From the sequence record NZ_CP090684.1: a stretch of DNA of 64,000 nucleotides; one strand, given 5' to 3'. The stretch is from a plasmid. Positions 13,591-30,373 of this stretch are shown piece by piece; position 1 is the stretch's first letter; each line of letters begins with the position of its first letter. A program made the translations under genes and the position numbers. The notes beneath the pieces are model-generated. The model made no database searches, was not told where the DNA came from, and worked only from the letters and a program-made list of their open reading frames with translations.

Positions 13591-13629
13591 TGATATGTAT
13601 GGAGCGGTTCACGCCCGAGGGAGGGGGAT

Positions 13630-13662: not shown

Positions 13663-13768
13663 TCGGCGTCCGCCGATATCCCGCTCGGCGCACGGCCCGG
13701 ACGATTTAGCGCCGCCAGGCGCGTTGAGGAAGGCGCCGTGCGACGCTGGATGGCGCGAGGTAGTGCAC

Positions 13769-13794
13769 AAAAAAAAACCCCGTCACCGACGGGG
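13769..13794 (-). terminator. Rho-independent terminator after the ParB-like gene
   Basis: On the minus strand: hairpin ccccgtcggtgacgggg followed by TTTTTTTTT. Confidence 0.6.
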
Positions 13795-13826
13795 CAAATT
13801 TGCGACTGCTCAGAGATATCGTTGAA

Positions 13827-16082
13827 TTAAGCCGCCGGCCGGCTTCCAGCGAGCACGTTCGGCGTCGGCGTCGCAAACGGCCACGGGAATCGCGCCGATT
13901 GAGTGACTCGGCCTCCCGCAAATTCCGTCGGCGCGACGTCGGCTGGCTTCACGCCGGTCTCAGCACCGTCCGGACTATCCGAGACCGTGTCAGGTTGCGC
14001 CGGTTCATCACCCAGCACTTCCTCGTGGGCTCCGAGATTGTCCGCCGTCGCGAGCTCGCCGTCCGCATCCTCCTGCTCATTACCGTCATCGCCGAAATAG
14101 GTTCGCGCGGTACGGACTTCGGCAGCAGCCATGAATTCGGGAAGCCAGTTCTTGTCGGCAAGCAGTTTTTCCGCTTCCTGCGCCGCCTCTGCCTTCTTCA
14201 TTTTCCCCAACCTCGCCCCATGCTCCTTCGAAATGACGTCACTCACGATCGCAACGATTCGATCCTTCGAGACATGATTAAGGTACGACTCGCAGGTGGG
14301 CTTCCAGTACTTCGTGAGGTCAAGTTCCAGAGCGCCGGCGAGCGCATTGATAGCATTCGGTTCTTCCGTGCGGCTCACACCATTCAGACTCAGAGCCGTG
14401 CAAACGGCGAGAATGTTCAGGACTACCGCTTGCGGCTGTTCGAGCAACCATCCGAACAGTTCGTTCGGGTTTTTCGGAATCATGCGAGTGACCGCCAGCA
14501 CCGACCGTGCAAGCTGGTCGTACTGGGGCAACTCCTTGATGCCGGGCACAGCTCGATCCGCGCTGTACATCGGCTGCTGTTCCTTGATCTGCACAGCACT
14601 GAGGTCGCTATAGTGCTCATAGACGAACTCCAGCAACAGTCGGTGTGCGACAGCGACGAGCGCAACGCCGGGGTTCGCAACAAGCGCGGTTTGAACCGCT
14701 GCCGTGCGGTGCGACGTCAGATTGAGCAGCAGTTTCTCCGAATGCAGCCCCTTAACCTTCTTGGTCAGGCTACGCGGGACCGACTGACCTGCCTCTTCCA
14801 TCATCGCACGCGCTTGCGCCCGATTCTCGCGACGCACCAAGCCGCGCACGATTTCAAGTGCTCCGTCGTAGCCGACCGTGACGATCGCCCCGCTCACTTT
14901 CATCTGCTCCGAGGTGAACTCTCCGTCGCGGTCGTCCATTTCCTGCATGATCGCGTAAAGCTGATTGCACTCGCCGTCCAGCTTTTCCCGGTCCTCGTCG
15001 CTGAGGTACGCAGCATCGCCCACTTCGGCATCGTAGCTTGCCTCGATTTTCTCGCTGAGTTCGTCGGCCCGCATTTGAGCTTCTTCGTATTTTGCCTTTT
15101 CGTCGCTAGTGAGCGGAACCGGAGTGGAATAAAGTTGCGTAAACTGGTTGCGGTCGTCATAGTCGAAGGTCGGTCGGGCTTCAACCCAATTCCAGCCTTC
15201 GGCCTTGATCGATTCGACCGTGCAGGCGATTTTCTCATCGAACAATCGAGCCAGCAGCTCACGATTGACGATGAAACCGTCATCTTGCTCCGCGAACAGG
15301 TCGCGCTCCACCTCTCCCCCGGCTGCTTCGTATGCGGCGACAGTCACGAATCGCACCATCCGGTCCCCGAACGACAGTTTCTCGCCTTTCAGCACATTGC
15401 GCAGTGCGTTAGGGCTCTGGTTCCAGTGTCCCTTTGCACCGAACCACGCCGCTTCCTGTCGCTCGTGGTTGTCGGTGATGGCAAGCGCCTTGATCTGTTC
15501 GAGGCTGATGACGTCCGCAGCAAACAGTTCAAAGAGCTTCGGGGAAACGTTCGCGAGCTTCAATCGACCGGCGACGACCTTCGGACTGACATTGAAGACT
15601 GCCGCAATGAACTCAGGGCTTCGGCCCTCGTCTGCAAGCGCCTTGTAGGCAGCGAATTGGTCTGCAGGGTGCGGGGGTACGTGCAAGTCATTTTCTGACG
15701 CACTAGCAAGGATCGCCTGCGCCTCCGAAATCTCGATGCAACGCACTTCATCGTCCATCGACATGTAGCCGCGCTCGACGTTGAACAGGAACGCTTGACG
15801 GCGCGTTTCCCCCGCGTCGACGCCCCACTCCTGCGCCTTCTTCGCCCTCTGCGGCATTTTATGCACAACGAGGTTCTGTAGTTGACCGACAGCAAGCATG
15901 TTGTCTGCGATTGCCACAATGGTCGCTTGATCGCGCTTCTTCTTACGCTGGTTATACGGCGAAGCGACCAGCCGTTTCAACGGAATCATCACTTCCCGTT
16001 GCCCTGCGCGAAGCATGTTCGGCATGTCGGCGGGCAGTGCATCGGCGTTCACGTTGGCGTCTTGTGCAATCACGGTTTTCAT
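13827..16082 (-). CDS. ParB/Srx-like nuclease-domain protein (751 aa)
   Basis: N-terminal segment VASPYNQRKKKRDQATIVAIADNMLAVGQLQNLVVHKMPQ is typical of the ParB N-terminal/sulfiredoxin fold. Long acidic C-terminal region. ATG at 16082 with a GAGGAA RBS. The longer ORF to 16298 runs into the repeat and is rejected. Confidence 0.7.
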   Translation of the reverse strand: MKTVIAQDANVNADALPADMPNMLRAGQREVMIPLKRLVASPYNQRKKKRDQATIVAIADNMLAVGQLQNLVVHKMPQRAKKAQEWGVDAGETRRQAFLFNVERGYMSMDDEVRCIEISEAQAILASASENDLHVPPHPADQFAAYKALADEGRSPEFIAAVFNVSPKVVAGRLKLANVSPKLFELFAADVISLEQIKALAITDNHERQEAAWFGAKGHWNQSPNALRNVLKGEKLSFGDRMVRFVTVAAYEAAGGEVERDLFAEQDDGFIVNRELLARLFDEKIACTVESIKAEGWNWVEARPTFDYDDRNQFTQLYSTPVPLTSDEKAKYEEAQMRADELSEKIEASYDAEVGDAAYLSDEDREKLDGECNQLYAIMQEMDDRDGEFTSEQMKVSGAIVTVGYDGALEIVRGLVRRENRAQARAMMEEAGQSVPRSLTKKVKGLHSEKLLLNLTSHRTAAVQTALVANPGVALVAVAHRLLLEFVYEHYSDLSAVQIKEQQPMYSADRAVPGIKELPQYDQLARSVLAVTRMIPKNPNELFGWLLEQPQAVVLNILAVCTALSLNGVSRTEEPNAINALAGALELDLTKYWKPTCESYLNHVSKDRIVAIVSDVISKEHGARLGKMKKAEAAQEAEKLLADKNWLPEFMAAAEVRTARTYFGDDGNEQEDADGELATADNLGAHEEVLGDEPAQPDTVSDSPDGAETGVKPADVAPTEFAGGRVTQSARFPWPFATPTPNVLAGSRPAA

Positions 16083-16188
16083 AGCATTCCTCAAAATTAA
16101 CATTGAAGTTGTGACGGGACCGCCGGGCCCCAAGATTCTGAGTCCCGGCGTAAGCCGTTCTGTCGAGTCGGCGGGCCGCGCTCCGCAG

Positions 16189-16344
16189 CTGCCGCCGTTC
16201 CCCTGAGTTCGTCGTCCCGCGACGATCGGAGCGAGGACCAGTGCATCGTCAAGGGGTGACGCGCGGGTCGGTGCGGGAGGGAGCGCAGCGACTGACACGG
16301 TCCCGCGCGCCCTTGACGTTGCGCTGGCCGCAGCTACAGTCGCG
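16189..16344 (+). promoter_or_regulatory. Frpo/ssi-like structured element, copy D
   Basis: Stem cgtcaagggg (about 16245) pairs with cccttgacg (about 16309). -35-like TTGACG at 16313-16318, a 16-nt spacer, then TACAGT at 16335-16340, followed by gtcgcgg pairing with the upstream ccgcgac. Confidence 0.5.
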
Positions 16345-16731
16345 GAGGTGGACGGCGAACGAGGGGGACGGAGATGAAGGCAGCACCCGTACCACGACGA
16401 GCCAGAACGCCCCGCGCGGCGAGCGCGCTATCCGAGCGGCGCGACGTCAGGAGCGCCGAGAGGCTGGAGGGATGGCCCGCGCCGGGGCAAGTCCGCGGGA
16501 CGCGGCGCAGCCCCAAGAGCGGAAGTGTTTGGTCTCCGGGCCGCCGCGTGCGCGGCTTGCGTGTCGGCCGGTAGTGCCGGCCGGCGCGCAAGGTGCGGCG
16601 GCCCGGCTGGCTTCCGGGCCCAGGTCCACCGTCAGTGCAGCGTCGGTAGGTCCGCGCCTTCTTCCGTTCCCACGCCCCACGAGAATTCGGCCAATACGTA
16701 TGGGGCGAGCGTCGCGCTCGCCCAACGATAG

Positions 16732-16923
16732 TTACGCGCTTTGCTCAGTGCGATCTCGGTTCTGCACGTGTTTCGTGATCGCGCGTCGCGCGCTAACTAA
16801 TGTCCTGCGGCGCTCTAGATCGAAACCTCCATCATTCCGCATGATCTGTGTTTGGACTGTCTCAACTCCCCGCTCGATCGAGACATGGATGAAATGCCCC
16901 TTGTAGCCAATGGTGTGAAACAT
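16732..16923 (-). CDS. Hypothetical small protein (63 aa)
   Basis: ORF whose start is adjacent to the stop of the 117-aa gene. Confidence 0.3.
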   Translation of the reverse strand: MFHTIGYKGHFIHVSIERGVETVQTQIMRNDGGFDLERRRTLVSARRAITKHVQNRDRTEQSA

Positions 16924-16924
16924 A

Positions 16925-17278
16925 TCAGACCACCTCAGAGACAGGGAAACCGGCTTCAGTGAGCTCACGGCGCGCATCGTCATCCCAGGTCGTCGGCGAC
17001 TCGGACTCACAGCGATACGCGTAGGCGATTGCCGCTTCGCGTGCGTCGGCCGACAGACCGCCGGTTACTTTGACCACGACCTCCCAGTATGTCCCGAAGT
17101 CGTGGGCGCTGCTCTTGATGAACAGGCTGGCACCGTCGGGGGGTTCGCCCAAGGTGCGCCTGATTTGGTTGATGAAGGCCGTGCATTCGGCTCGGCTACG
17201 CTCCAGGTAGCGCATGTCGCCCACTTGCGCACATGCCTCATCACATGGCGCTGGTCCAATCTCAATCGTTTCCACCAT
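16925..17278 (-). CDS. Hypothetical acidic protein (117 aa)
   Basis: AGGAGAG RBS 8 nt upstream of the ATG at 17278. Acidic composition. Confidence 0.5.
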   Translation of the reverse strand: MVETIEIGPAPCDEACAQVGDMRYLERSRAECTAFINQIRRTLGEPPDGASLFIKSSAHDFGTYWEVVVKVTGGLSADAREAAIAYAYRCESESPTTWDDDARRELTEAGFPVSEVV

Positions 17279-17374
17279 CGTACAGCTCTCCTAAAAAATA
17301 TAGACTGACCGGGCCCCAAGATTCTGAGTCCCGGCGTGAAAGGTTCTGGCGAGTCGGCGGGCCGCGCTTCGCAG

Positions 17375-17532
17375 CTGCCGCCGTTCCCCTGAGTTCGTCG
17401 TCCCGCGACGCCTCGAGCGACGAGCCGGCGACGCGTCAAGGAGTCAAGCGCGGGGTGGGCGCGGGAGGGAGCGCAGTGACCGACACGGACCCCGCGCGCC
17501 TTGACGCGGCAGAGGCCGACGCTACGGTCGCG
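17375..17532 (+). promoter_or_regulatory. Frpo/ssi-like structured element, copy E
   Basis: Stem cgcgtcaagg (17433-17442) pairs with ccttgacgcg (17499-17508). -35-like TTGACG at 17501-17506, a 16-nt spacer, then TACGGT at 17523-17528. Outer stem cccgcgac pairs with gtcgcggg. Confidence 0.5.
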
Positions 17533-17911
17533 GGGAATGGACGACGAACGAGGGGGACGGGGGTGCGGACAGTGCTTGCTCCGTGACGAGCCGGAACGCC
17601 CGCGCGGCGAGCGCGCTATCCGAGCCGGCGCGACGCGAGGAGCGCCGCGAGGCTGGAGGGATGGCCCGCGCCGGGGCAAGTCCGCGGCACGCGGCGCAGC
17701 CCCAAGAGCGGAAGTGTCCGGATTCCGGGCCGCCGCGTGCGCAGCTTACGTGCCGGCCGGCAGCGCCGGCCGGCGCGGAAGGCGCTGCCCGGCGGCCCGC
17801 ATGTCACCGGCGATCCCGGTCGAGGACTCGGATCGCCGTCCCTGCCAATTGCGGTCCGATGGCGGTCCCATGGAGTGCGGTCGAGCGAGTTGAAGCTCAT
17901 GAAGATGACGG

Positions 17912-18325
17912 CTACCCGTCCCCCTGCTGCCCGCTTCGGCGGGCCTGGGTAGTGCGCGCAGGAGTTCGACACACGCGGTGGGCATCCATAGATCCATCGA
18001 ACGCCGCGGGTGGATCGCTCACTCGGCGTCCGAAGTCAACAATGGCGCGGTCAACGTTCGACACGAAGAATTCAACAGCAATTGCCTGAACAGTCGGAGC
18101 AAGCACGCCCGCGTTCGGGTAAAGCCGGTCGAGCGTCGCCATTTGGCGGAGGACCAGTCTGCTAATGTCTTTCCACGTTCTGTGGGGAGCACGTTGCCAC
18201 GCGTATAAGGCGTCAGTAACGATCGTGTTGAGGATGATGCGAATTTGTGCGTTCCGAACGCGGTTCGATGTGGCAAGCGGCCACTCTCGCGGCAACGTCA
18301 CGGAATACAAGTTGGATTCCTTCAT
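17912..18325 (-). CDS. Hypothetical protein (137 aa)
   Basis: ORF. Confidence 0.4.
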   Translation of the reverse strand: MKESNLYSVTLPREWPLATSNRVRNAQIRIILNTIVTDALYAWQRAPHRTWKDISRLVLRQMATLDRLYPNAGVLAPTVQAIAVEFFVSNVDRAIVDFGRRVSDPPAAFDGSMDAHRVCRTPARTTQARRSGQQGDG

Positions 18326-18384
18326 GATGGATTGCGTGACGCGGACACCGGATTGAGTGCCCGCGTCCGATCAGTTTTTTCAGT

Positions 18385-18918
18385 TTAGAGGTCCGCCCAT
18401 GCAACGTCGGCTTTCGTTTCCACTTCGCCGCCGAACATATGCTCGACCTGATACCGCACGCGCGCACGTGCACCGTCGATCACAAGCGTTCCGCGACCAA
18501 AGTAGCGGCCCAGCAGAGCTCGTTGTTCTTCCGCCCGGAGCTTGCCGCGCCACTTACCGTTGCAGTTCCCGATGCGATTTACGAGGAATAGGCGCAGTTT
18601 CGCTGCCTGTTCGTGCTGGTTCGGCGGCGGCGTCAGCACAAGCACGCCGTCCCGGTCAATCGGCGCGAGGTTTGTGTCTCGGTAGGTGCGCTTGTATTGG
18701 GTTGGGCCGATAGCCAGCCCCCAATCGACCGTATGCTGAATCCGTTGCCGTGCCTCTGATGAAGAGCGGGCAACCACCGAATCGTATGCGCGGCCGGCGC
18801 GCGACTTCCGGATATTGAAGAACGGGACACCCGGTCGCGATTCGAATCGTTCGACGTCGATTTGATAGTGGCCATGCTTGCCACCACCCTCCCATCGCTC
18901 AACTAGTTGCGCAGTCAT
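18385..18918 (-). CDS. Hypothetical protein (177 aa)
   Basis: ORF. Confidence 0.45.
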   Translation of the reverse strand: MTAQLVERWEGGGKHGHYQIDVERFESRPGVPFFNIRKSRAGRAYDSVVARSSSEARQRIQHTVDWGLAIGPTQYKRTYRDTNLAPIDRDGVLVLTPPPNQHEQAAKLRLFLVNRIGNCNGKWRGKLRAEEQRALLGRYFGRGTLVIDGARARVRYQVEHMFGGEVETKADVAWADL

Positions 18919-19418
18919 GCTGCCTCCACACGACGGCCGAACAGCATCAGTGCGACTGCTTCGAGGCGTGCTGCTGTATCGATAAGGACGCCATCGTCGT
19001 CGGCAAGCACGGTGATGTAGCTGGATTCGCCGCGTGGACGACCAGCCGCATCTCGCGCAACGTGTACTACACTGACGCCGGCCGCCTGCAGCCCGCGCCG
19101 GGCATATTCCGCAAAGGTGTCTGCCTCGCCGTGCTCCCTTTCAACCCTTCGCATACGCTGCTGAATGCGTTCGATCTTGCGGACGGCAGCGCGCAATTCG
19201 CCCAATTCCGGGGTGAGACTGTTCAACACGACGCGATGGCCGAATGCCACTGCATGGTCGCGACTGACGAAGGCGCGAAGCTCAATCGTCCCCGAATACT
19301 CGTACCCCACCGCACTGACCACCGCGCGTTGAATCTCAACGACGAGTTCAGTAACGTTGTGGTCCCGTTCGACGTACAGCATGGCATGCAGTTGGGGTTT
19401 CGTTGCGCGTCGTGTCAT
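18915..19418 (-). CDS. Hypothetical protein (168 aa)
   Basis: Start MTRRATKPQLHAM at 19418. The longer ORF that runs into the repeat is rejected. Confidence 0.45.
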   Translation of the reverse strand: MTRRATKPQLHAMLYVERDHNVTELVVEIQRAVVSAVGYEYSGTIELRAFVSRDHAVAFGHRVVLNSLTPELGELRAAVRKIERIQQRMRRVEREHGEADTFAEYARRGLQAAGVSVVHVARDAAGRPRGESSYITVLADDDGVLIDTAARLEAVALMLFGRRVEAA

Positions 19419-19511
19419 TGCATAGCTCCGTGGATGTTTGCTGACCGGGCCCCAAGATTCGGAGCCCTTCGTAGGGGTTTCCTTTCGGCGGACGCTGATT
19501 GGGTCGCAGCG

Positions 19512-19667
19512 TTGCCGCCGTTCCCCTGAGTTCATCGCCCTGCGACTCCGGAAGTTCGAGGAGGCGTCGCGTCAAGGAGGCAAGGGCGGGGGCGGTGCGG
19601 GACGAAGCGCAGCGAAGGACACGGCCCCGCACGCCTTGACGCGAGGCTGACGAGGACTACGGTCGCA
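19512..19667 (+). promoter_or_regulatory. Frpo/ssi-like structured element, copy F
   Basis: Stem gcgtcaagg pairs with ccttgacgc. -35-like TTGACG at 19636-19641, a 16-nt spacer, then TACGGT at 19658-19663. The outer stem here is ctgcgac with gtcgcag, a compensatory change relative to ccgcgac/gtcgcgg in copies D, E and G. Confidence 0.5.
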
Positions 19668-20196
19668 GAACTGGGCGATGACGGGGAACGGTGCGTAACG
19701 CGTGACCTGCGATCGCGCGAAAGGCCCGCGCGGGTAGCGCCTGTTCGCGCAGCGAAGCGGAGCGACTGGAATGGGCGGCAAGCGCCGGGCGAAGCCCTGG
19801 AGCGTTCAGTTTGTTTCCCGGTCCGTGGCGAGTTTCCTCGCCACGGATCCGGCTCGATGCCGACAGCTTTACCGCTGAAAGGCCTGATATTGGGCAGCAA
19901 CGACCACTTAGGTCGCGCGTGTGGCGCTATGGTCGCCCCCGATCCCCCGACGCGTACTCCGAAATCGAGGGGGCGACCGCGCAAACCGCCCTCCTCTCGC
20001 GCTTTCGACGCTATTGGCGCCTGGTCCCGCATCGGCCCGATGCGACGAGCCGCAGCGAGTGCGAGTACCCTGCAATGGCAAAAAACCCCACAGCTCCGAC
20101 CGCGCGCACTTACGGGCGACCGTCGCTGCCGCCATCTCGGTGTTGTTTGACTGAAGGTGCTGGGCACGGACCTTGAGAATTCCAGCACTCGTTTGC

Positions 20197-21990
20197 TCAA
20201 AGCACGAACGGCAGGTCTGCTTGCGCACTGGAGGTCGTTGCCTTGTGTGCCCATGCAGTGCGCGCCGGCGACGGCAACGCCGCAAAACGCACCGCGCGGC
20301 GAAGCAGATCAGCAACGGCATAGTCGAGCGTTAGTCCAAGCCGATCTTTGAAATCTGTACGACGCGCGATCTCGTCGTGTTCTCGTTGCTGTGCTCGTGA
20401 CAATGTCAGCGTGCCATAGTTTAGGTACCAACGGTACCCAGCCGTGATGCCTCCAGGGAAGAATCCGGCATCATGCATTTCGACCAGGCGCTCGAATTCG
20501 AAGTCCAGGATCATCTCGGCCGATTCCTCGTCGACTTCGAACCGCTTACCGGTCGGCACCTCCCAAGTGGTTCGCCCGCCCTTGAGATGGTGAACTTTCC
20601 GAGCACATGGAGAGTCTTCAGTCAAAGCCTCGAACAGCGGATCTCGGAACCCTGTCCACTGATCCGCGGTGTCGTCCCAGTGCTCTCCGACATGCAGAAA
20701 CATAGGCTCCGGCATTGGCTGCGGCGCGACCGGCATAACGTCCGGAACATCGTATCGAACGCCGTTGCAGTAGATGTCACGATAGTCAGCCCATATCGCG
20801 AAGGGTGGTGCCAGGCCTTGAAGCGATTGCATAGCATCGACGGCAATCATCATCGTCAAGGGCAACGTTTGAAATTTGGGCCGCGATCCAGTGCGCTTTG
20901 CGCGGACCAGCTCGTCTCGGTCGATCGTCATCATGTACCGCACAAGCTCTCGCACAGTGGCCGCGTTGAATGTGTCCGGCTCTATGCAGATGTAGCCTTC
21001 TTTAATGGTACGACCGACCCAATTTCGGCGGGACCAGTCATACCGAATCGCACGGATGAACTTGTTGAGGCGGTTCAGTCCACTCGCATACGCGTAGCGA
21101 TCCTCATCAAATTTGATCATCTCTTCGAGCGATCGGTCTTCCGCCTGTTGGCACGTCCAACATCCTGTCCGCGCGTCGCAGTGCCCCCTGCGCTTCCGTT
21201 TTCCGGCCGACGCCTCTTCGAATGAGAGGTCTGAGACGATCGCGCAGCTGCTGTTGCCTGCGTGCGCATAGATTCGCGAGGTTTCTCGGAAGTCCGTGTA
21301 GGTAGACCGAAGACCTGACGTTACTTCGCCGATGTACTCCCAGACGTCCTCAGTCTCCCAGTCAGCGATCACACACAGCGTGAGGTCACCCTCGTCGTTG
21401 CGCACGGGTGTATCGGCACGATCGCCACGGGCTTGCATGCCGGCCTTCCGCTTCGCGCTTTCGGCAAACCTCGATCCGAGGCATACGACCGGCTCAGCAT
21501 ACCCCTGCTGCTTCGCAGCGCGCGCGAGTTGATTTCGGAACACTCTGGAAGGCTCGATCTTCAAGCTCACTGAGCAGTCCGAGTTCGTACCTGCATAGCT
21601 TGGGAGCGCTCGACCGCTGAGAATCGTGACCTGCCAAGAGGTGGCCAGTGACGGCGCGACCGTTTGCACGTGGACCCTGACGTTGTGCCGCTTTCCGTAC
21701 GCGTGCATTTTCGCCAACTCCCGCTGGGCGTGCGCTACGATCTCAGGCGACTCGACCCCGGTGTCAGCGGTAACGACGTAGACGACCGCCTCGCCTCCTT
21801 CTGCCGCGTGTCGACGGGCGGCTTCGAGAGTCAGCGCCGCTACGACGCCACTGTCCTTACCGGCGCTGAACTGGCAGATCGCGATACGGCGCTCGTGAAA
21901 TAGCCGCCGCAAGGCCGCGACGGCACGCTCTACTCGCTGATCAAGCGTCGGCCGTTGTTGAAGATGAGGAAACAAATCGATCGTTTGCAT
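20197..21990 (-). CDS. PAPS-reductase-like / PP-loop ATP-pyrophosphatase family protein (597 aa) with a CxxC segment
   Basis: The PP-loop SAGKDSGVVAAL is an SGGKDS-type motif. A later CWTC motif resembles DndC/IbrA-like enzymes that partner with ParB-like proteins. Confidence 0.65.
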   Translation of the reverse strand: MQTIDLFPHLQQRPTLDQRVERAVAALRRLFHERRIAICQFSAGKDSGVVAALTLEAARRHAAEGGEAVVYVVTADTGVESPEIVAHAQRELAKMHAYGKRHNVRVHVQTVAPSLATSWQVTILSGRALPSYAGTNSDCSVSLKIEPSRVFRNQLARAAKQQGYAEPVVCLGSRFAESAKRKAGMQARGDRADTPVRNDEGDLTLCVIADWETEDVWEYIGEVTSGLRSTYTDFRETSRIYAHAGNSSCAIVSDLSFEEASAGKRKRRGHCDARTGCWTCQQAEDRSLEEMIKFDEDRYAYASGLNRLNKFIRAIRYDWSRRNWVGRTIKEGYICIEPDTFNAATVRELVRYMMTIDRDELVRAKRTGSRPKFQTLPLTMMIAVDAMQSLQGLAPPFAIWADYRDIYCNGVRYDVPDVMPVAPQPMPEPMFLHVGEHWDDTADQWTGFRDPLFEALTEDSPCARKVHHLKGGRTTWEVPTGKRFEVDEESAEMILDFEFERLVEMHDAGFFPGGITAGYRWYLNYGTLTLSRAQQREHDEIARRTDFKDRLGLTLDYAVADLLRRAVRFAALPSPARTAWAHKATTSSAQADLPFVL

Positions 21991-22084
21991 GGCTGCTCTA
22001 TCCGCATGTTGGGTGGCGCCGGGCCCATAGATTCCGAGTCCCGGCGTAAGCCGTTCTGTCGAGTCGGCGGGGCCGCTGCTGCGC

Positions 22085-22238
22085 CTGCCGCCGTTCCCCT
22101 GAGTTCGTCGTCCCGCGACGATCGGAGCGAGGACCGGAGCAACGTCAAGGGCGACGCGCGGGGCGGTGCGGGATGGAGCGCAGCGACTGACACGGCCCCG
22201 CGCGCCTTGATGGTGCGCAGGCCGCAGCTACAGTCGCG
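22085..22238 (+). promoter_or_regulatory. Frpo/ssi-like structured element, copy G
   Basis: -35-like TTGATG at 22207-22212, a 16-nt spacer, then TACAGT at 22229-22234, then gtcgcgg. Stem caagg...gcgcgggg pairs with ccccgcgc...ccttg. Confidence 0.5.
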
Positions 22239-22404
22239 GAGATGGACGACGAATGAGGGGGAAGAAGGAGTCAGGGCGTGACGTCGCGCGAGACAGAACG
22301 CCGCGCGGCGAGCGCCCTTTCACGCGGCAAGCGCCAGCGGCGCCGCGTGACACAATTTCGGCCTTTTAGTGCGCAGGACGGTAGAACAGCGCACTCGTCA
22401 GATA

Positions 22405-22459
22405 CCGTCGCGCGGTACGGGTGGGGCTGGCGCACCGGTCCACCCGTACCGCGCGACGG
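22405..22459. repeat. Perfect 20-bp inverted repeat (ccgtcgcgcggtacgggtgg ... ccacccgtaccgcgcgacgg) with a 15-nt spacer
   Basis: Seen directly. It lies downstream of the 22484..22774 gene, at the distal end of repeat copy G. Confidence 0.6.
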
Positions 22460-22483
22460 CTGGTTCCTAACGCGGATCCGCGG

Positions 22484-22774
22484 CTAGAAGCGTCCGGCGA
22501 TCTTCGGTTCAATTACGGCGAAGAGCGCTGCCGACTGCTCGGCGTCGAGTCCGCTGGTAAGCGCGTAGTCGATGCAACGCAAAGCGACACGCTTCGCTTC
22601 CGCTTCGAGCGCACAAACGTCAAAGAGGCTGCAGATCATGTCGGGGTGCACGATAGACGCGAGTACGTCGAGTAGCGACTCATTGCGACTATCAATGCTG
22701 GCGTCTAGGACAGCCAAGGCGTCAACGAAGGGTTGTGGAAGCGTTCGGATCATGGCTGAAAAAAAGCCGGACAA
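22484..22774 (-). CDS. Hypothetical protein (96 aa)
   Basis: ORF. The last co-oriented gene before the AT-rich, G-tract and iteron region. Confidence 0.4.
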   Translation of the reverse strand: MSGFFSAMIRTLPQPFVDALAVLDASIDSRNESLLDVLASIVHPDMICSLFDVCALEAEAKRVALRCIDYALTSGLDAEQSAALFAVIEPKIAGRF

Positions 22775-23755
22775 GCCGCGGCCGCGTACATCAAACCACC
22801 GCGCGTGGTGGTTCTTGACCGACAGAAAATATTAATTCTTATCACTTAATGAAATGACGATACTTTTAAACGTATATTGCAAACGGAGCCATTGTACGGT
22901 TAAATTAACCGGCCCTGACGATCAGGGCGTCTCTAGCAGTTCTCTTTCCCAAAGGCAGTCAAAGGCCCGCGCAAGCGGGCCTTTGGCTTTGTGCAGCGGG
23001 CATGGCCAAAAGTTAAGCACGTCGGGCGGCCCTTGTTGCCCGCGTCCGCGCCGCACGTTAGATCCGACGCGTTCGTCGGGACCGCTTCCACTAAACCGCT
23101 ATCGATCGCTGGGCGCCCCGCACGCTCATAGGTGCGCCTTGCCGGGGCGTTGCGCCCTGTTGGTATGGTCAGTTTCGCGAGCGAACGCTTATCCGCGCGC
23201 TGACCGGTTGCCCAGCGCCCTCGGCGCCTCAACCCCTTTCGGACTCTTCCGGACCGCGCCAAGAGCCTCTACGCGCTTCCATGGGAGCCTTTTTCAGACC
23301 GCGAGCCCCCTCCTTGCAGAGCATGGGGTAGACGGTGGTTGCGCGAGGGCGCGTCTCGGCAATGGGCGAGCACACGAGCGCGTTGATCACCGGGGTGGCG
23401 GGCCACCCCGGTGATCTTTTACGCGCACTTGGGGGCCGGCGTGCCATAGGCACGTCGGCGCCTTAGTGCCTGCCGCGCGAAAGGGGTGACTTGAGGGGGG
23501 TGTTTCGTATCCATGCCCCGTAGGGGCCACGATATTGCAGTTCGGGGGGGGGGGCCGGGTGGGTGGGGCCGGCTTTAGCCGGCGAACCCGGCCGGGGGGG
23601 CTCTTTGGAGCCCCCCCTCACTGAGGGTGGCGCCGTTCCATTCCGGAGTTAAAACCAAGTTAAAAAATTCGGTTAACCGCGCGCGCGTTTACGCATTTGC
23701 TGAACGCCGGTGCACAAGGGACATGGGCTGATGAGGTGGTCCGTTCGACGCGCGA

Positions 23756-24145
23756 CCGGTGGTGCGAAAGACGATCTCTGCGGGACTGATAGACGCGCAC
23801 GGTGGCGCCATAGACGCACAGCATCCGGACTTATCCACAGATTCGGTTCCGGTGGTCCAATAGACGCCCGCAAAAAATACAGCGAACACATGGCACTCGC
23901 CTGCCGCGCCGGCTGGTCCTACTGCAGAAACCCTTACTGCGTAAGCTATTGAAAGAACATGACCTTCAACTCCGGTGGTGCGATAGACGTCCCGAACGGT
24001 GGTGCGATCGACACTTCAGGAGCGACAAAGCCTCGCGACAGAGTGGTGCAATAGACGCCGGATTATGGTGGCGTGATAGACACGACGCCTCGTCACCTCG
24101 CCGGGAACGTGTCGGTTAGCGTGAGGTGGCGCGATAGACGTATCA
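23756..24145 (+). repeat. Iteron array: at least 8 direct repeats of about 17 bp, consensus GGTGGYGCRATAGACRY
   Basis: Copies at about 23756, 23798, 23849, 23972, 23995, 24041, 24065 and 24123, with a degenerate copy near 24307. Irregular 20-120 bp spacing. No rep, parA or parB gene sits directly beside the array. Confidence 0.6.
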
Positions 24146-24405
24146 GCCGACGCAACAATCGATCGGTACAGTATCCATGCGAGCCGTATGAATTCTCCCG
24201 CCGGATACTCGGTCTCGATGCTGATACACGAGCGCGGTTTGGCAGTGGCGGCCTGCCCGTTGGAGTCCGGTTGATTAAGTTGCCGCACGCGTTGCGATCT
24301 CAATTACGGTCGCGATGGAGACGCTAGCCAGGCCGAACGCGCCGGTCCCTTCACTCAGATCCGAACCCTACGGAAGCTGGAAAAAAGCGGGTGGAGGTTC
24401 TCGTA

Positions 24406-24630
24406 TCAGTGAGGGTTCTGTGCGTCGAAGCAGTCCTCAACCCAAGCCCACCGACCGTTAGCAAGCCCGCACCATTCTTGCCCTTCTCCGGTCCATCGGT
24501 TGATTCGAACCGTACCTTCACGATCGTATTGGTACCGAAGCATGATGGCAGCAATCAGCACCGCGAAGGCAATCGCGAATGCAAGCCAGCTAAGTCCTTT
24601 GTCTGCGTTCATCTTCGCGACCTCGTTCAT
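24406..24630 (-). CDS. Hypothetical small membrane protein
   Basis: ORF with one hydrophobic helix (LSWLAFAIAFAVLIAAIML). Confidence 0.35.
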   Translation of the reverse strand: MNEVAKMNADKGLSWLAFAIAFAVLIAAIMLRYQYDREGTVRINRWTGEGQEWCGLANGRWAWVEDCFDAQNPH

Positions 24631-24646
24631 GGACCGCTTTCCGTTG

Positions 24647-24859
24647 TTATAGACCAAGAGCGCGACAGGCGTCTGCCCACGCCCACGATTCGCGTTGGCC
24701 ATAACCGACAGGCTTGCGCGAGTTAGGCTTCAGTTTGACGACATATCGCACGCGCCCTCCGGCGAACGTGCCGACTTCGCGCACTACCACTGCGTCCGGA
24801 TGTTTCGCTCTCAGGCGCTGTTTTGCCGTCATCGCTTTTCCTATCGCACTTCGCGGCAC
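24647..24859 (-). CDS. Hypothetical basic protein (70 aa)
   Basis: ORF. Confidence 0.25.
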   Translation of the reverse strand: MPRSAIGKAMTAKQRLRAKHPDAVVVREVGTFAGGRVRYVVKLKPNSRKPVGYGQRESWAWADACRALGL

Positions 24860-24889
24860 ATCGCGTGCCCCCTCGATCTGGCCGACCCG

Positions 24890-25210
24890 TTACTTCGGTG
24901 AGTGCGCCAGCACGACCGACCCAGCCGCGTATCCCGGCTCAGCGTTGAGGTTCCGCAACGGCACGATGAGGGAGACGCGTGAAACGACAGCATCCTCGCA
25001 TGTCTTTTCCGTGATGGTGATTTGCCAACCAATCGACGGCTGAAGTGTACCAACGTACTTGCAATGCGCAGCGTCACTCAGGCGGATTATCCGAGGATTT
25101 GCGTCTTGCAAGCTCGTCTCCAGCATCAAAGGAACTTGCTGGCCCGCTGCCGCGCTTGTTGCAAGCGTCGCCAGTGTCACAGTCAGCGACAGCTTCTTCA
25201 TCGCGTTCAC
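24890..25210 (-). CDS. Hypothetical secreted protein (106 aa) with a signal peptide
   Basis: N-terminus MNAMKKLSLTVTLATLATSAAAG looks like a signal peptide. Confidence 0.45.
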   Translation of the reverse strand: MNAMKKLSLTVTLATLATSAAAGQQVPLMLETSLQDANPRIIRLSDAAHCKYVGTLQPSIGWQITITEKTCEDAVVSRVSLIVPLRNLNAEPGYAAGSVVLAHSPK

Positions 25211-25212
25211 CG

Positions 25213-25398
25213 TTACAGGTCGTATTTCGCGCGCAATTCAACAATCCGCTCTAAGCGCGCGTGATGCGCCGCGCGAGCTTCTGCCGAAACGTCCGCGAGA
25301 TTCACCTTTCCGCAGGCGACCGACGTTTCCCATTGAGTCGTTTCCTCAACAAGGTTGACGAGCTCCCGCATTTCGCGCTTCATCATGTCGAACACCAT
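25213..25398 (-). CDS. Hypothetical protein (61 aa)
   Basis: ORF tightly packed with its neighbours. Confidence 0.3.
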   Translation of the reverse strand: MVFDMMKREMRELVNLVEETTQWETSVACGKVNLADVSAEARAAHHARLERIVELRAKYDL

Positions 25399-25413
25399 CC
25401 CTTTCCCCTGTTC

Positions 25414-25656
25414 CTAGCCGTTAGTGAGGCCGTGAGCACCCACGCCGCGCATGAGCCGTTGCGCAATAAGACGCACGATCGCGATCGCCTCTCCGTCGTC
25501 GGACGCGAGTTCACCAAGAAGCATGGCCCGCGCAACAGCATCGCACTGCGCCGGGACTGACGCTTGGGTGAGAACAACCGCGCTCTCGTAGCCCTCAGTG
25601 CCGAGCAGCTTCTGAACTGCTCGGTCAAAATCACTTCGCTTGACGTCCATCATCAC
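25414..25656 (-). CDS. Hypothetical protein (80 aa)
   Basis: ORF. Confidence 0.35.
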   Translation of the reverse strand: MMMDVKRSDFDRAVQKLLGTEGYESAVVLTQASVPAQCDAVARAMLLGELASDDGEAIAIVRLIAQRLMRGVGAHGLTNG

Positions 25657-25671
25657 GCCTTTTCTCAGTTC

Positions 25672-25863
25672 TCAGCCGCTCTGTTTTTGATGTGCCTGAG
25701 CTGCTTCGAGGCTGTCGAAGTTACCGCGGTGATCGCGACCTTGCCAAAGCATGAAACGAGACACACCGGAAACGACGTATCTTCCGATCGTCCACCCGCT
25801 AGCGTGTGACCAGCCGTAGGGCGATTCTTGCTTCCACTCTGCTTCTGCGACTACCTCGGACAT
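25672..25863 (-). CDS. Hypothetical protein (63 aa)
   Basis: ORF. Confidence 0.3.
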   Translation of the reverse strand: MSEVVAEAEWKQESPYGWSHASGWTIGRYVVSGVSRFMLWQGRDHRGNFDSLEAAQAHQKQSG

Positions 25864-26035
25864 CGTTCTGTTTTCCTACAGTTCGTGATTCGCGGGGCAC
25901 ATCAGCGCGGAGTCGCGCTCGCTGCTCGCGATAGCCTTCCATGTGAGCAATTGTTCAATCGAGTTGCTCGATCTCTGCCTTTTCCGACCCGCGCATTCCT
26001 GTATCAGCGCTTCGGTCATTTTGTTTTCTGCTAGG

Positions 26036-26293
26036 TCAGTGGCCGAGCGGCGCGACGATTTCAATTGCCGCTGCGATCGCGAGGTAGAAGCCGACGAGAC
26101 CGAATGCGATGATCCCGATCCGCCGACTGGGACCTGGCTGAATCTGGAAAAGGTGAGCCAACACCGTTCCAGTTTTCCGCCAACTGTCCATATACGCCGC
26201 ACTCAGCGACGTCTCCGACGACCAGATGAGCATCGCCATCTGGAAACTGACGATCAACATTACGGCTACCCCAAGCGCTTGCAGTACCAACAA
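26036..26293 (-). CDS. Hypothetical membrane protein (85 aa, two TM helices)
   Basis: Hydrophobic ORF. Confidence 0.4.
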   Translation of the reverse strand: MLVLQALGVAVMLIVSFQMAMLIWSSETSLSAAYMDSWRKTGTVLAHLFQIQPGPSRRIGIIAFGLVGFYLAIAAAIEIVAPLGH

Positions 26294-27013
26294 AATTTGC
26301 CTCTCTTCTTCGATGCCGGCGTGCCGGCGTTTTCTAGGTGCCGGCTGCTCCGGCCGTTCGCGCGCTCAACGACAGGACCAAGCCAGCGGCTCCGGGCCTT
26401 CCCGTTCAGTGTTCCGAGGAGTTGTCGCTGGGCGCGTTGCATAATCGATCACCCCAGGTGCTCGATCTGCCACCGGTAGGTATCCAACTCTGTATCTAAT
26501 TTCTGCGCCATCTCAATCTTTTCCTTGTGACCTTCGAGCCAGCATTGACTAGTTTCCGCACTCCTATCGGCTCGACGCGCTGACGGCGACTCATCAGTGG
26601 CGGGTAGCCACTAGCAACAGGATCACAACGGTGCCGGACGCGATCGCCGCGAAGGTGCTGGCCGGATGGGGGAGGTGCTGTGCAATCTCAAGGCCGAAAG
26701 ACAGACAGCCCATACCGAGAGTAGCCAGGGCCACCAAAGTTGCGAGCATTCGCATTTTTTGTTTCCTCTTTGTCAGCCTGAGCGCTACGCTTCGAACGAA
26801 ATCAGTTACGCGTGTGTGCCCGTTCCACCGTTTTCCTTCATGTCGGCAGCGCCGGCTTTTGCCGGTCAATCGTAGCGTCTGATCGGAGCAAGACCGCGTT
26901 GCTCGCGAAGCGCATCTTCTGCCCGCTCCATCGACGCCAAGCGGTACTGTGCTGACGAACAGTCCGGAGGGTCCAGCGCCCATACGTGCGGCTCCCGCGT
27001 ACGTGCCAGAGAC

Positions 27014-27676
27014 TCAATCTCGGCCTTCCTCGGCTCGTCGTTTTCGGATTTCATCATCGCGATTTTCACGTTGTCTGTCCCTCGGATCAATCACGTCGGC
27101 GAAAGCCGGCCGCAAGCGATCCGGGTCATAGAGTCCAAGTACCCGACCCAGACGCATCCCTACTGTCGGGCAGCCGAGCTTTTCCAGGTAGATCATCGCG
27201 CCCGCACACATGCTCTCCTGGCCGCTGGCCACATAGTTGCCATCGCCATCCCACTCCCCGCCAGTTCGCTCGTTATGCACGGTCTTGTGGCAGTGAAACG
27301 TGCCTCGATCGTCCTTCACCAAGGCGTCCACGATACCGTCGAGGCGGCCAGGCGCGAGCTCGATAGCCCCGACCTTGAGAAACGGGCAGTTCTCACATGG
27401 GCGACGCAGCTTGAAGTGCGAGTCATTTCCAGACGCCATTACGTTTTCCGTTGCGTAGATGCTGCGCGCGTTCGCGCCGTTACCGTCGGTAATACATGGG
27501 TCGCAGGCCTGCCTCCAAAGCTCCAAATTCCACTGCGAAACCGTGCGACCGTCCAAAGCTTTTCGTTCATTGCGTTTTCCGGTGCGGTATCCGCTGAACG
27601 TCGAAGTGGGCTGCTGCGTAACGCGCGTTGCAGTTCCAAACTTCCGCGCCGTCGCGGGTGAATGTCGCGCAACCAT
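27014..27676 (-). CDS. Hypothetical Cys-rich protein (220 aa)
   Basis: Motifs PCENCPF and FHCHKTVHN suggest a metal-binding site. Confidence 0.4.
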   Translation of the reverse strand: MVARHSPATARKFGTATRVTQQPTSTFSGYRTGKRNERKALDGRTVSQWNLELWRQACDPCITDGNGANARSIYATENVMASGNDSHFKLRRPCENCPFLKVGAIELAPGRLDGIVDALVKDDRGTFHCHKTVHNERTGGEWDGDGNYVASGQESMCAGAMIYLEKLGCPTVGMRLGRVLGLYDPDRLRPAFADVIDPRDRQRENRDDEIRKRRAEEGRD

Positions 27677-27840
27677 TCTTCACGACCATCCTTGCGCGCG
27701 GAAACACAGCACTGTGGCCATTCGCGGCTGCCGAGAATATTGTGCGCTCGCGGCACGTTGCCTCGTATTCACCGTCGGCAAGCATTCGGTTGGCTCGTTT
27801 GCTGTTCATCATGTTGACCTTGCTCAGTATTTTTCCTTGC

Positions 27841-28134
27841 TCAGTTTTCGAGCGTCTGACTCAATGCACAAACAGCATCGCTAAAAAGCCTAACCTGCCA
27901 ACCGAGCCCCTTATACACATCTTCGGCGGCGTCTCGCGCTCGTCGTACCTTCGCCACTCCCAAGGTGTAACCTCGTGCCTTCGTGCAGACCGTCACCGAG
28001 CCTGCCGGTCGTCCGCGTGCGTCGATTGCGGTGATTACGGTCCCTCGGGAATCGTCTTCTGCAATCCATCCTGCAGGTAGCTCGATCGGCAATCTTTCAG
28101 TTCCCACCATAGTTTCTCCGGTTTTCCGGCTCAC
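27841..28134 (-). CDS. Hypothetical protein (97 aa)
   Basis: ORF. Confidence 0.35.
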   Translation of the reverse strand: MSRKTGETMVGTERLPIELPAGWIAEDDSRGTVITAIDARGRPAGSVTVCTKARGYTLGVAKVRRARDAAEDVYKGLGWQVRLFSDAVCALSQTLEN

Positions 28135-28258
28135 AAATTTTCACTTTGCGTTGTCGTGCGGACACTGCTTCTGATTGTGGTCAGCCGGTTTCCCCCGAAC
28201 GGTCGCTGCGCACAATGTGGTGCACGACTCGTCTGGTCAACTTTTCGCTTCCCGTCCT

Positions 28259-28480
28259 CTATCGCGCCGTTGCCTTCAGCGGCATTCCTGTGCGCCTACG
28301 ACGCAATACGGTTTCGCCGACGGCGCTTGCTAGTGCAATCGCTAGGCTGGCGCACGTCGCCGCGAACCACGCGGGCACATCGAGCGGAAACGACCAAAGC
28401 ACGCCGACGCAGAAGACCGATCCGCCAAGAGCGAGGATCGTTGTGTATTTCAGGACTGAGATCGCGCGGTCGAGGTTCAT
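28259..28480 (-). CDS. Hypothetical membrane protein (73 aa)
   Basis: Hydrophobic ORF. Confidence 0.3.
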   Translation of the reverse strand: MNLDRAISVLKYTTILALGGSVFCVGVLWSFPLDVPAWFAATCASLAIALASAVGETVLRRRRTGMPLKATAR

Positions 28481-28781: not shown

Positions 28782-29111
28782 TGGTCCCACCAAAATAGAA
28801 TGAGAGCGGCCTCGTGTGCGGCATGAGGCATGTCTTGGTGCAATATAACATTGCGCGCAACGGTTGCATCGATAGATGAACGCAGCGTTGTTTCTGCTGC
28901 GCATCTATGCTCGTAATGCCTCCACTTCGAAGACTGTTACGAGGAAGTCCGTCTGACGCCCGGTATGGGCGTTCGTACCCCGGAAATACGCGATTCCTCG
29001 GAAAACCGGCGCAGCGATCCGGTCGACGCTTGCCAACTGCATCGCGCGATATTCGCCGCCGTTTCAGTGCCCGCTGTTCTCGGCTACCATCCTGCGGTTT
29101 TCCAACAGACG

Positions 29112-29444
29112 ATGAACGACATGTTGACGGATATCGAGGCTCTTCAGGCCCAATTGCGTGAAGTGAACGCCCGACTCGCGGAGGTGAAGCGCGACGAGAA
29201 GCGTGCCGCACTGGACGCCATTCGCGAGCAGGTCGCGCTATACGGCATCTCCGAGGAGGAGCTTTTGCTGGCTGCAGGCTTTCGTAAGCCGCGTAAGCGC
29301 CGCACTTCGGCGAAATACTACGACCCGTCGACGGGTAAGGAATGGTCCGGATTCGGCCCTCGTCCGAAATGGCTGGTCGGGAAGAACCTCGACGACTATC
29401 GGATAGATCGCGCCCCGAAGCCGTGGTGGCCCGGCGAGTCGTAA
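29112..29444 (+). CDS. H-NS-family nucleoid-associated protein (110 aa)
   Basis: N-terminal coiled coil. C-terminal segment KYYDPSTGKEWSGFGPRPKW is an H-NS DNA-binding motif variant. Confidence 0.7.
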   Translation: MNDMLTDIEALQAQLREVNARLAEVKRDEKRAALDAIREQVALYGISEEELLLAAGFRKPRKRRTSAKYYDPSTGKEWSGFGPRPKWLVGKNLDDYRIDRAPKPWWPGES

Positions 29445-29578: not shown

Positions 29579-30373
29579 ATGTGCTATTCCGCCAAGGTCG
29601 AAGCTAACTACCGCGAATACGTGCGCCGCTACGGCGCCGACATGGACATCGAGTCATTCAGGCGCCTGTATTTTGCGCGTGCAGCGTCCGGCGACATCAA
29701 GATCCCGAAAGCGGTCGACGCGGCGCTTGCAGCAGCTGGAGACGACGAGATTTCGGCCGCGATCTTCGCGTATCGCACTCACCGTGCCAGCGAGCTTGAA
29801 TCCGAGCTCTTTAAGCAGCGGACACGGCTTGCGGCCGCGGAGAAAAAGCTGGCGGCGAAGGTCACCAAGGCCGCCAGCGAGGACGTTCGAATCGCCACCG
29901 ACAAGATCGAAGCGGCGATGCGCGGCCTCGAGGATCTTCGTCGGACCGACCTGCAGGAGCGCGATTCCCGAATTTTCCCTGGTTGGTATGCGCCCGTGTT
30001 GATTGAGCTCGATGGGAAGCGCGTGATTGTTCCGATGCGCTATCGGTGCCGACTGCCTGGATGGACGGAGCGCGATGAGAGGCAAAAGCCCGGCACCTAC
30101 AATGCGCGCGTCGATTCGTTGTCGACGGCGTGGCGCAAGGTGTTCGGGTTCTCGCATGGGCTAATGCTGGTCGACGCATTCTTCGAGAACGTGAAGCGCG
30201 ACGAGCGGAACGTCGTGCTGCGCTTTGATCCGACGCCCCGGCAGCACATGCAGGTCGCTTGCTTGTGGACGCGCACCGAAATCCCTGGCTCGGACGATCT
30301 CTGGTCGTTTGCGGCGATCACTGACGATCCGCCGCCGGAAGTCGCCGCGGCCGGACACGACCGATGCATCTGA
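29579..30373 (+). CDS. SRAP/YedK-like (DUF159) abasic-site processing protein, divergent variant
   Basis: Starts MCYS, so Cys2 is conserved, and ends HDRCI where canonical SRAP has HDRMP. Length 264 aa. Confidence 0.55.
   Translation: MCYSAKVEANYREYVRRYGADMDIESFRRLYFARAASGDIKIPKAVDAALAAAGDDEISAAIFAYRTHRASELESELFKQRTRLAAAEKKLAAKVTKAASEDVRIATDKIEAAMRGLEDLRRTDLQERDSRIFPGWYAPVLIELDGKRVIVPMRYRCRLPGWTERDERQKPGTYNARVDSLSTAWRKVFGFSHGLMLVDAFFENVKRDERNVVLRFDPTPRQHMQVACLWTRTEIPGSDDLWSFAAITDDPPPEVAAAGHDRCI

Follow-up and report, generated by a model that had tools for sequence, protein, structure and literature searches.

The vegetative origin (oriV) of the IncP-1 plasmid RK2/RP4 combines 17-bp iterons in separate clusters with one or more DnaA boxes and with AT-rich and GC-rich stretches, and the gene for its initiator, TrfA, lies kilobases from oriV, the protein acting in trans. 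Single-strand initiation (ssi) signals are also known near plasmid origins, such as the G-site of R1, ssiA and ssiB at the oriV of RSF1010 and the primosome assembly sites of ColE1 and pAMbeta1. Here we analysed a repeat array in the non-coding stretch 22775-24405 of a 64,000-nucleotide part of the plasmid record NZ_CP090684.1 (the window; all positions refer to it unless another locus is named). Judging from its sequence, the array is very probably the oriV of an iteron-type theta replicon, served in trans by an initiator of the RPA family (PF10134), RepA. Replicons of this type are often found on conjugative plasmids from Burkholderia, Paraburkholderia and Caballeronia. The array is an uncharacterised member of a well-known kind of element, ordinary apart from the hairpin module that adjoins it.

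An iteron array with an internal DnaA box

We searched the window for GGTGGYGCRATAGACRY with at most two mismatches and recovered 8 matches, every one of them on the plus strand between 23758 and 24141. The mean in shuffled controls (n = 100) was 0.13 and none of the 100 reached 8. A family consensus derived from related plasmids, GGTGGTGCGATAGACGC, added a ninth copy at 23735, and the register shared with the same relatives added a tenth, degenerate one at 23781-23797 (GCGGGACTGATAGACGC). The repeat array reported in the initial annotation is therefore real, and it comprises 10 positions on a single strand (+), 23735-24141. The span proposed for it, 22793-24330, does not correspond to one array, as the iterons fill 23735-24141 alone and the wider interval merges four or more distinct features.

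The units are direct repeats without internal dyad, and the candidate RepA sites among them are GGTGGTGCGATAGAC repeats. Cluster 1 (23735-23817) holds the copies 23735-23751 (three mismatches), 23758-23774, 23781-23797 and 23801-23817, which start 23, 23 and 20 bp apart. Iteron 5 (23851-23867, plus strand) follows 50 bp after iteron 4, and between the two lies a perfect match to the DnaA box consensus, TTATCCACA, at 23831-23839 on the plus strand. It is the sole perfect DnaA box in the 64 kb, where 0.10 would be expected. This box had been overlooked in the initial annotation. Cluster 2 (23974-24141, plus strand) starts 123 bp after iteron 5, with copies at 23974, 23998, 24042, 24067 and 24125 (steps of 24, 44, 25 and 58 bp). 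The spacer that separates it from iteron 5 (23868-23973) is conserved in length and not in sequence, and is AT-rich in some relatives only. Within the clusters the spacing is 20-25 bp or double that (about 44 bp). Two features of iteron-type origins, same-strand direct repeats of about 17-22 bp phased at about two helical turns and a DnaA box within or adjoining the iterons, are both present in the array. Another iteron-like 17-mer, GGGTGCACGATAGACGC (four mismatches), is located at 22644-22660 inside the first gene of the leading region (89 amino acids) and is kept at the same place in NZ_CP090706.1, NZ_CP048444.1 and pBPSE01; this may simply be coding conservation.

The same array lies near repA in related plasmids

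We compared the array with loci from NZ_CP090706.1 (L001/L005), NZ_CP048444.1 (L022), pBPSE01 (NZ_KF418775.1; L002), Paraburkholderia dioscoreae pI (L003), Paraburkholderia phytofirmans OLGA172 (L006), Burkholderia thailandensis (L007) and Caballeronia zhejiangensis (L016), among others. The region is 97.8% identical to NZ_CP090706.1 and 94.0% to NZ_CP048444.1, both plasmids of Burkholderia multivorans. Over the central 0.5 kb, plasmids from B. pseudomallei, B. thailandensis and two species of Paraburkholderia share 67-80% identity with it. Eight related Burkholderiaceae loci carry the same 17-mer at a spacing of 23, 23(22), 21, 50, 122-124, 24, 44, 25-26 and 58-88 bp, the last being the step to the final copy of cluster 2. 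The pattern is shared by L001, L022, L003, L006, L015 and L007, and in part by L016, and the RepA proteins of these loci are 54-100% identical to one another. Cluster 1 has its four copies in the same register (23/23(22)/21 bp) in L003, L006, L007, L015 and L016. The 50-bp offset of iteron 5 is identical in all relatives keeping this copy (L001, L022, L003, L006, L015 and L007), which are also the loci with the gap of 122-124 bp; in L016 the iteron 5 site falls below the search threshold, and in pBPSE01 it is deleted. The spacing, which had been described as irregular and unlike that of origin iterons, is thus a phased pattern conserved across plasmids.

The DnaA box between iterons 4 and 5 is also present in L001, L003, L006, L015, L016, L027, L028, L029, L031 and L035, and L007 has CTATCCACA at its position. 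The layout is repeated in nine metagenomic or genomic loci, and five metagenomic contigs also display the conserved architecture of iterons and DnaA box. Four copies of GGTGGTGCGATAGACGC, a DnaA box and one more copy, a gap and then four or five copies make up the architecture of Burkholderiaceae replicons with an RPA (PF10134) RepA, and this is what the window contains. Three relatives, L003 (at 7795), L006 (5785) and L007 (5779), have one additional, isolated iteron 592-594 bp before cluster 1, beyond the hairpin block described below; neither the window nor the B. multivorans plasmids contain it. The origin copy of pBPSE01 (L002 8755-8840) retains the hairpin block and four iterons, with the DnaA box, iteron 5 and the whole of cluster 2 gone, and is probably a dead origin.

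In the relatives, the opposite strand to the right of the array carries repA (replication initiator protein A in the annotation), and this gene was found 0.44 to about 15 kb off in every relative with enough flanking DNA. The distance is 0.44 kb in P. dioscoreae pI (from the repA end to the last iteron), about 1.1 kb in C. zhejiangensis, 1.8 kb in B. thailandensis, 2.9 kb in P. phytofirmans OLGA172, 11 kb in NZ_CP090706.1 and about 15 kb in NZ_CP048444.1. This variable gap holds nucleases, an HNH protein, H-NS, SRAP, imuA-imuB-dnaE2 and insertion sequence (IS) elements, and is a cargo insertion zone. The relatives' RepA matches Pfam RPA (PF10134; E = 2e-56) and no other Pfam initiator, and its gene is the last of a parA-parB-korA-like-repA operon encoding ParA, a ParB_N protein and a KorA/TrfB-like repressor (PF16509). 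Initiators of the RPA family are widespread, with 865 plasmid records matching at E <= 1e-20, and a recent preprint groups RPA with the winged-helix initiators (10.1101/2024.09.03.610885). No feature is annotated under the array in the related PLSDB records examined, and no description of this origin was found in the literature on pBPSE01, pBMUL01/pTGL1, PF10134 and Burkholderia iterons or oriV.

Cargo fills the interval towards the expected repA

We mapped the window by open reading frame (ORF) calling and Pfam searches and found no rep or par gene beside the array or elsewhere in the 64 kb. Moreover, tblastn of the window with four RepA proteins and with the KorA-like protein, ParB and ParA of relatives gave no match. 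The lack of such genes next to the array, as stated in the initial annotation, therefore extends to the whole window. As an argument against an origin it does not stand, given that the relatives' repA is 0.44 to about 15 kb away and that the corresponding interval is here filled with cargo.

To the left of the non-coding stretch are a TrwB/TraD-type coupling protein (1288-3315, minus strand) and leading-region-like genes on the minus strand (4111-22774), among them those for a PLD nuclease, a Toprim/DUF5710 protein, a large ParB-like protein and a PAPS-reductase-like protein. To the right follow small ORFs on both strands (24406-28480), H-NS (28965-29444, plus strand), a SRAP gene (29579-30373, plus strand) and heavy-metal and arsenic resistance cargo in mixed orientation (30650-64000). 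The relatives' homology ends at 30370, inside the SRAP gene, and the metal island begins there; the cut leaves SRAP with 264 amino acids as against 304 in the relatives. The small ORFs, H-NS, truncated SRAP and metal island stand where relatives carry the genes leading to repA. The window is without an initiator because the cargo insertion separates the array from repA, and from this order we infer that repA is sited past the right end of the window. The island continues for at least 10 kb beyond that end (extension from ORF 62856-63233), which gives it a total of at least 43 kb, and these 10 kb are still metal-resistance cargo with no repA reached.

The island contains czc/cus RND pumps, a P-type ATPase, ars genes, a multicopper oxidase and copCD. 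Near-identical copies of it occur in other Burkholderia plasmids with different backbones (L037), and PLSDB has no plasmid that spans the origin together with the metal island.

A predicted course of initiation and its alternatives

Upstream of the iterons lies an AT-rich element, AGTTAAAAccaAGTTAAAAAA (23647-23667), followed by GTTAACCGCGCGCGCGTTTAC; together they occupy 23647-23692 on the plus strand and are near-invariant in the loci of type A. The AT-rich stretch itself is about 30 bp long (23647-23677), has two AGTTAAAA repeats and is located 60-90 bp from the first iteron. A diverged form of the element is recognisable in pBPHYT01. It is the best candidate for a DNA unwinding element, with a GC clamp. 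The AT-rich block pointed out earlier at 22820-22900 is also present, with a GC content of 0.39 at 22800-22899 compared with about 0.6-0.7 nearby. It is unlikely to be the unwinding element of the origin, because it lies 0.9 kb from the first iteron and just upstream of the first leading-region gene, which starts at ATG 22753 on the minus strand and whose homologue in pBPSE01 is annotated with 89 amino acids.

On this basis RepA, supplied in trans from the distant repA operon, would bind the ten 17-bp iterons of the consensus GGTGGTGCGATAGACGC in the two clusters, and host DnaA would occupy the one TTATCCACA box, which lies between iteron 4 and iteron 5, while the AT-rich AGTTAAAA repeats of 23647-23667 would be where the duplex opens. 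Cluster 2 would probably serve copy-number control through handcuffing. The hairpin block and its G tract might, as a tentative suggestion, act as a single-strand priming signal after the origin has unwound or when the plus strand enters a recipient.

Several observations weigh against an active origin, and some of them would suit a different view, in which the array is a decaying or silent origin copy that still titrates RepA (for incompatibility or copy control) while another replicon drives replication of the plasmid. None of the copies in the window is a perfect GGTGGTGCGATAGACGC, and two of those in cluster 1 are degenerate. The pBPSE01 version is truncated after the fourth iteron, without a DnaA box, so such origins can decay. 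The closest relative, NZ_CP090706.1, has a second replicon of the parA-parB-repA type with a RepA_C initiator, so the origin in the array need not be the sole one in use. On the other hand, the ten positions, their spacing, the DnaA box, the AT-rich element and the hairpin block are all in register, and the region is 94-98% identical to two plasmids with a complete repA operon, which makes a silent copy very unlikely. Further points against the origin are that the AT-rich element is only about 30 bp long, and that the window has no initiator, the pairing of the array with an RPA RepA resting on relatives that are 94-98% identical in DNA. RepA binding and autonomous replication of the array are predictions from the sequence. 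The second replicon just mentioned is located at L005 16442-20054 (parA, parB and a RepA_C-type repA), and these plasmids may be multi-replicon cointegrates.

The array could also be thought of as a centromere for partition, to which the ParB-family product of the parA-parB-korA-like-repA operon would bind. In the compact relatives the array adjoins an operon that also encodes ParA and ParB, and some centromeres, e.g. parC of R1, do have direct repeats in two clusters. However, inverted repeats are the usual targets of ParB proteins with a ParB_N domain, and a parS for a helix-turn-helix ParB is expected as inverted-repeat boxes near parAB. Here the units are direct repeats, a conserved perfect DnaA box is embedded among them, the window is without parAB genes and the repeat sequence shifts along with the divergence of RepA in pBPHYT01. 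A candidate parS for comparison could not be defined; a palindrome upstream of the relatives' parA operon, GGTACGCGGCGCGTACC, which we considered as a separate parS, occurs once in L005 and nowhere else and was uninformative. We regard a centromere as extremely improbable. Among the functions proposed in the initial annotation, namely an origin, a centromere or a regulator-titration site, the origin is therefore strongly supported and the other two are not needed.

The array shows that a plasmid origin can look orphaned once cargo builds up between oriV and its initiator gene; here the interval from oriV to the expected repA carries metal and arsenic resistance, and the array would otherwise remain unannotated. 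The iteron consensus, the DnaA box and the fixed spacing form a signature for locating such origins in Burkholderiaceae plasmids, which could be of use in typing replicons and in designing vectors for the B. cepacia complex.

A conserved hairpin block next to the probable origin

The segment 23354-23640, upstream of the AT-rich element, folds into a highly stable structure, with -88.4 kcal/mol on the plus strand (z = -5.7 against shuffles) and -78.4 kcal/mol on the minus strand (z = -5.6). Its first part, module 1 (23354-23482), consists of a closing stem P1 and two long hairpins, H1 and H2, as predicted by RNAalifold on the plus strand from an alignment of 17 loci (A1). Compensatory changes were found in 15 of the 38 predicted pairs, and 96.4% of cells were paired compared with 86.8% in shuffles and 28-45% in slid-partner controls; none of 500 shuffles reached any observed measure. 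The plus strand was the more stable one in 16 of the 17 sequences, and the non-Watson-Crick cells were G-T in 40 cases and A-C in three.

Module 2 (23483-23640) comprises, on the plus strand, hairpin 3 (GCCCC-GTA-GGGGC, 23515-23527), a run of 11 G (23544-23554), a nested GC hairpin (23553-23593) and the hairpin GGGGGGGCTC-TTTG-GAGCCCCCCC (23594-23617). The G run and the nested GC hairpins had been noticed earlier and are both present. Module 2 is strongly conserved in sequence in type A loci, yet compensatory changes affect only 2 of its 46 pairs. Perfect triloop hairpins (n = 63) carry C(GNA)G in 32 cases on the plus strand and in one on the minus strand, and the N of this motif varies at the same hairpin position. 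A strand-specific stable structure under selection, as in ssi sites, G-sites and primosome assembly sites, is therefore present in the block. The G11 run is specific to the window, as the relatives read GGGGGGTGGGG, a single T-to-G difference. The G-rich string, which is G6-T-G4-CC-G3-T-G3-T-G4 in the relatives, overlaps the outer stem of the nested hairpin, and in its conserved form could fold into a G-quadruplex on the plus strand.

We also looked for signs of transcription. A scan with promoter and terminator consensus sequences gave counts no higher than shuffles, with no conserved promoter before the block and no terminator after it. A possible sigma-54 promoter at the 5' edge of module 1 (GGCA-N8-GCA) was rejected, since its spacing differs by one nucleotide between locus types, and so was a promoter of the Frpo type inside the block, as the stems H1 and H2 lack the -35/-10 pair that the leading-region repeats possess. 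In an Rfam 15 scan of 22400-24800 (E <= 10) the best hit was isrB, with 21.1 bits against a gathering threshold of 35 (E = 0.75).

Module 1 is not restricted to origins of the present kind. In L009, L011, L013, L017, L033 and L034 it lies about 300 bp before another set of iterons (CTGACGTTTTCCCACTG) and a Rep_3 gene, in B. plantarii (L018) 1 kb after a parA-parB-repA operon of the RepA_C type, and in L008, L010, L014, L026 and L032 downstream of a Ti-type traA; it also occurs in plasmids of B. aenigmatica and B. contaminans (L019, L020). It is thus common to the origins of three initiator families, RPA, Rep_3 and RepA_C. All identified carriers are Burkholderiaceae, and a metagenome scan recovered RPA-type, Rep_3-type and traA-linked loci only, plus three chance hits. 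In all loci module 1 is followed by further triloop hairpins and then by AT-rich repeats, which read CGACAnTTAA or AGTTAAAA in most loci and GGTTTGTA in the Rep_3 loci. The next element is a TTATCCACA box in all locus types other than the Rep_3 one; there, a near-match, TTGTCCACA, is found among the iterons. The block is always 150-300 bp from the AT-rich repeat, with a DnaA box or a similar site nearby, and we read it as a portable, host-adapted accessory of origins.

Regarding the function of the block, a single-strand priming signal would tentatively rank first, ahead of a small RNA, by analogy with the R1 G-site, ssiA and ssiB of RSF1010 and primosome assembly sites. The fuller proposal, that the 125-nucleotide module and the triloops form a portable, strand-specific signal for priming or primosome loading on single-stranded DNA (ssDNA), read by a host factor of the Burkholderiaceae, is somewhat more doubtful. 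Such an element could be used in vegetative initiation and again in the recipient, for synthesis of the complementary strand. Alternatively, the block alone might be the plus-strand gene of a structured small RNA rather than a DNA element. The compensatory changes and the bias towards G-T (G-U) on the plus strand suit RNA equally well as ssDNA, and a possible terminator tail, GGCGCTTTTT, closes the block in Rep_3-type and traA-type loci. This T-run is missing from RPA-type loci, however, and neither a conserved upstream promoter nor an Rfam match at or near the gathering threshold was found. The C(GNA)G motif, so strongly biased to one strand, is best known as a very stable DNA mini-hairpin, and the regular presence of an AT-rich repeat 150-300 bp away, with a DnaA box or similar site nearby, also argues against an RNA gene, which we hold to be unlikely. 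The block may also have a double-stranded role, in protein binding or as a structure.

The leading-region genes on the minus strand, together with Frpo-like elements oriented for the plus strand, indicate that the plus strand is probably the one transferred in conjugation of this plasmid, and the structure of the block could also act during establishment in the recipient. With the usual relaxase-last polarity, however, the same structure would fall on the non-transferred strand in the traA-linked loci, and we therefore do not tie the block to conjugation. A covarying hairpin module shared across different initiators is the more interesting by-product of this analysis; if it is a priming signal, it would be a host-adapted part of origins moving between replicons.

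Other elements of the non-coding stretch and the leading region

A near-perfect palindrome, AACCACCGCGCGTGGTGGTT, is located at 22794-22813, between ATG 22753 and the AT-rich block, and occurs once in the window. Neither pBPSE01 nor P. dioscoreae pI showed it, and it may be a lineage-specific operator. Together with the AT-rich block at 22820-22900, and judged by its position upstream of ATG 22753, it probably belongs to a promoter and operator region (22794-22900). Near the putative origin of transfer (oriT), the repeat at 4088-4107 reads GGTGGTGCAatcTGCACCAC and shares 11 nucleotides with one iteron variant. This palindrome, GGTGGTGCA-atc-TGCACCAC, lies at the edge of an AT-rich putative oriT region, beside the gene 3646-4107.

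The initial annotation had found a common core, GGTGGTGC, in the array, the oriT repeat and the palindrome, and had suggested that one protein recognises all three. The core is indeed present at 4088-4095 in the oriT repeat as an exact copy, but the 22794-22813 palindrome has none. Outside the array there are seven copies of GGTGGTGC, a marginal enrichment given that 2.46 +/- 1.58 are expected in the window as a whole and that shuffles reach up to seven. With the motif absent from the palindrome, the palindrome absent from pBPSE01 and P. dioscoreae pI, and just 11 nucleotides shared by the oriT repeat, the idea of a single protein is not supported.

A conserved hairpin with a T-rich tail, AAAGGCCCGC-GCAA-GCGGGCCTTTGGCTTTG, lies outside the origin proper at 22957-22995 on the plus strand. 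Its stem pairing is preserved despite sequence changes in P. dioscoreae pI and P. phytofirmans OLGA172, and it looks like an intrinsic terminator. TTGCAA-N17-TTAAAT is found upstream of it at 22869-22898. The interval 22869-22995 may give a plus-strand transcript of about 90 nucleotides, divergent from the leading-region genes, or the hairpin may be a bidirectional terminator. The simple consensus scan for promoters and terminators did not list the hairpin, and the 22869-22995 element matched no Rfam family.

Four dispersed repeats of about 330 nucleotides are located in the leading region at 12285-12614, 16120-16612, 17302-17788 and 22007-22339, each just upstream of a minus-strand gene. Their mean column identity is 77% and all four have self-complementary arms; the one that was folded as ssDNA (22015-22345) forms a long plus-strand hairpin with z = -5.05. 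The 3' arm contains TTGAYG-N16/17-TACRGT. Copies of these repeats are also present in pBPSE01 and P. dioscoreae pI.

Comparison with known systems

The ssDNA promoters of the Frpo/ssi kind in F and ColIb-P9 (background in PMC7736820) have the same arrangement as the leading-region repeats and not that of the iterons. Those repeats lie outside the origin, and the block next to the iterons is without a -35/-10 pair in its stems. Like the ssi precedents, the block groups stable hairpins on one particular strand, within a few hundred bp of the place where the origin would open. It differs from them in having no detectable sequence similarity and in being shared by RPA, Rep_3 and RepA_C origins, and a priming role would be assigned to it by analogy.

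In its overall plan the array is similar to the oriV of RK2, with 17-bp iterons in separate clusters, a DnaA box, AT-rich and GC-rich stretches and a distant initiator acting in trans. The similarity extends to the repA operon of the relatives, which also has a KorA/TrfB-like repressor (PF16509), a ParB-like protein and ParA. In contrast to RK2, the initiator belongs to Pfam RPA (PF10134) and not to TrfA, there is a single DnaA box and it lies inside an iteron cluster, and the distance between oriV and repA is variable, from cargo insertion, rather than fixed. The iteron sequence is also different, and presumably unrelated to the RK2 iteron. We considered membership in IncP-1 (RK2 type) and rejected it, as the relatives' initiator matches Pfam RPA only; with both the initiator family and the iteron sequence differing, the array is not a member of this family.

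A more distant RPA replicon is found in pBPHYT01 of P. phytofirmans PsJN (NC_010679.1), whose RepA is 39.5% identical. In a mirror image of the layout in the window, its repA is followed by iterons spaced 22-23 bp apart, a gap of 123 bp, a single iteron, TTATCCACA and four more iterons, again 22-23 bp apart, and beyond these by TTTTAAC repeats with a CGCGCGCG clamp and then GC hairpins. Its iteron, TCGGGTTTCGCGGATGTTTT, differs from that of the window, and its hairpin block has diverged past easy alignment. A different initiator thus goes with a different iteron sequence, whereas the DnaA box and the AT-rich element are retained, which suggests that the repeats are the sites of RepA and that the rest is read by host proteins.

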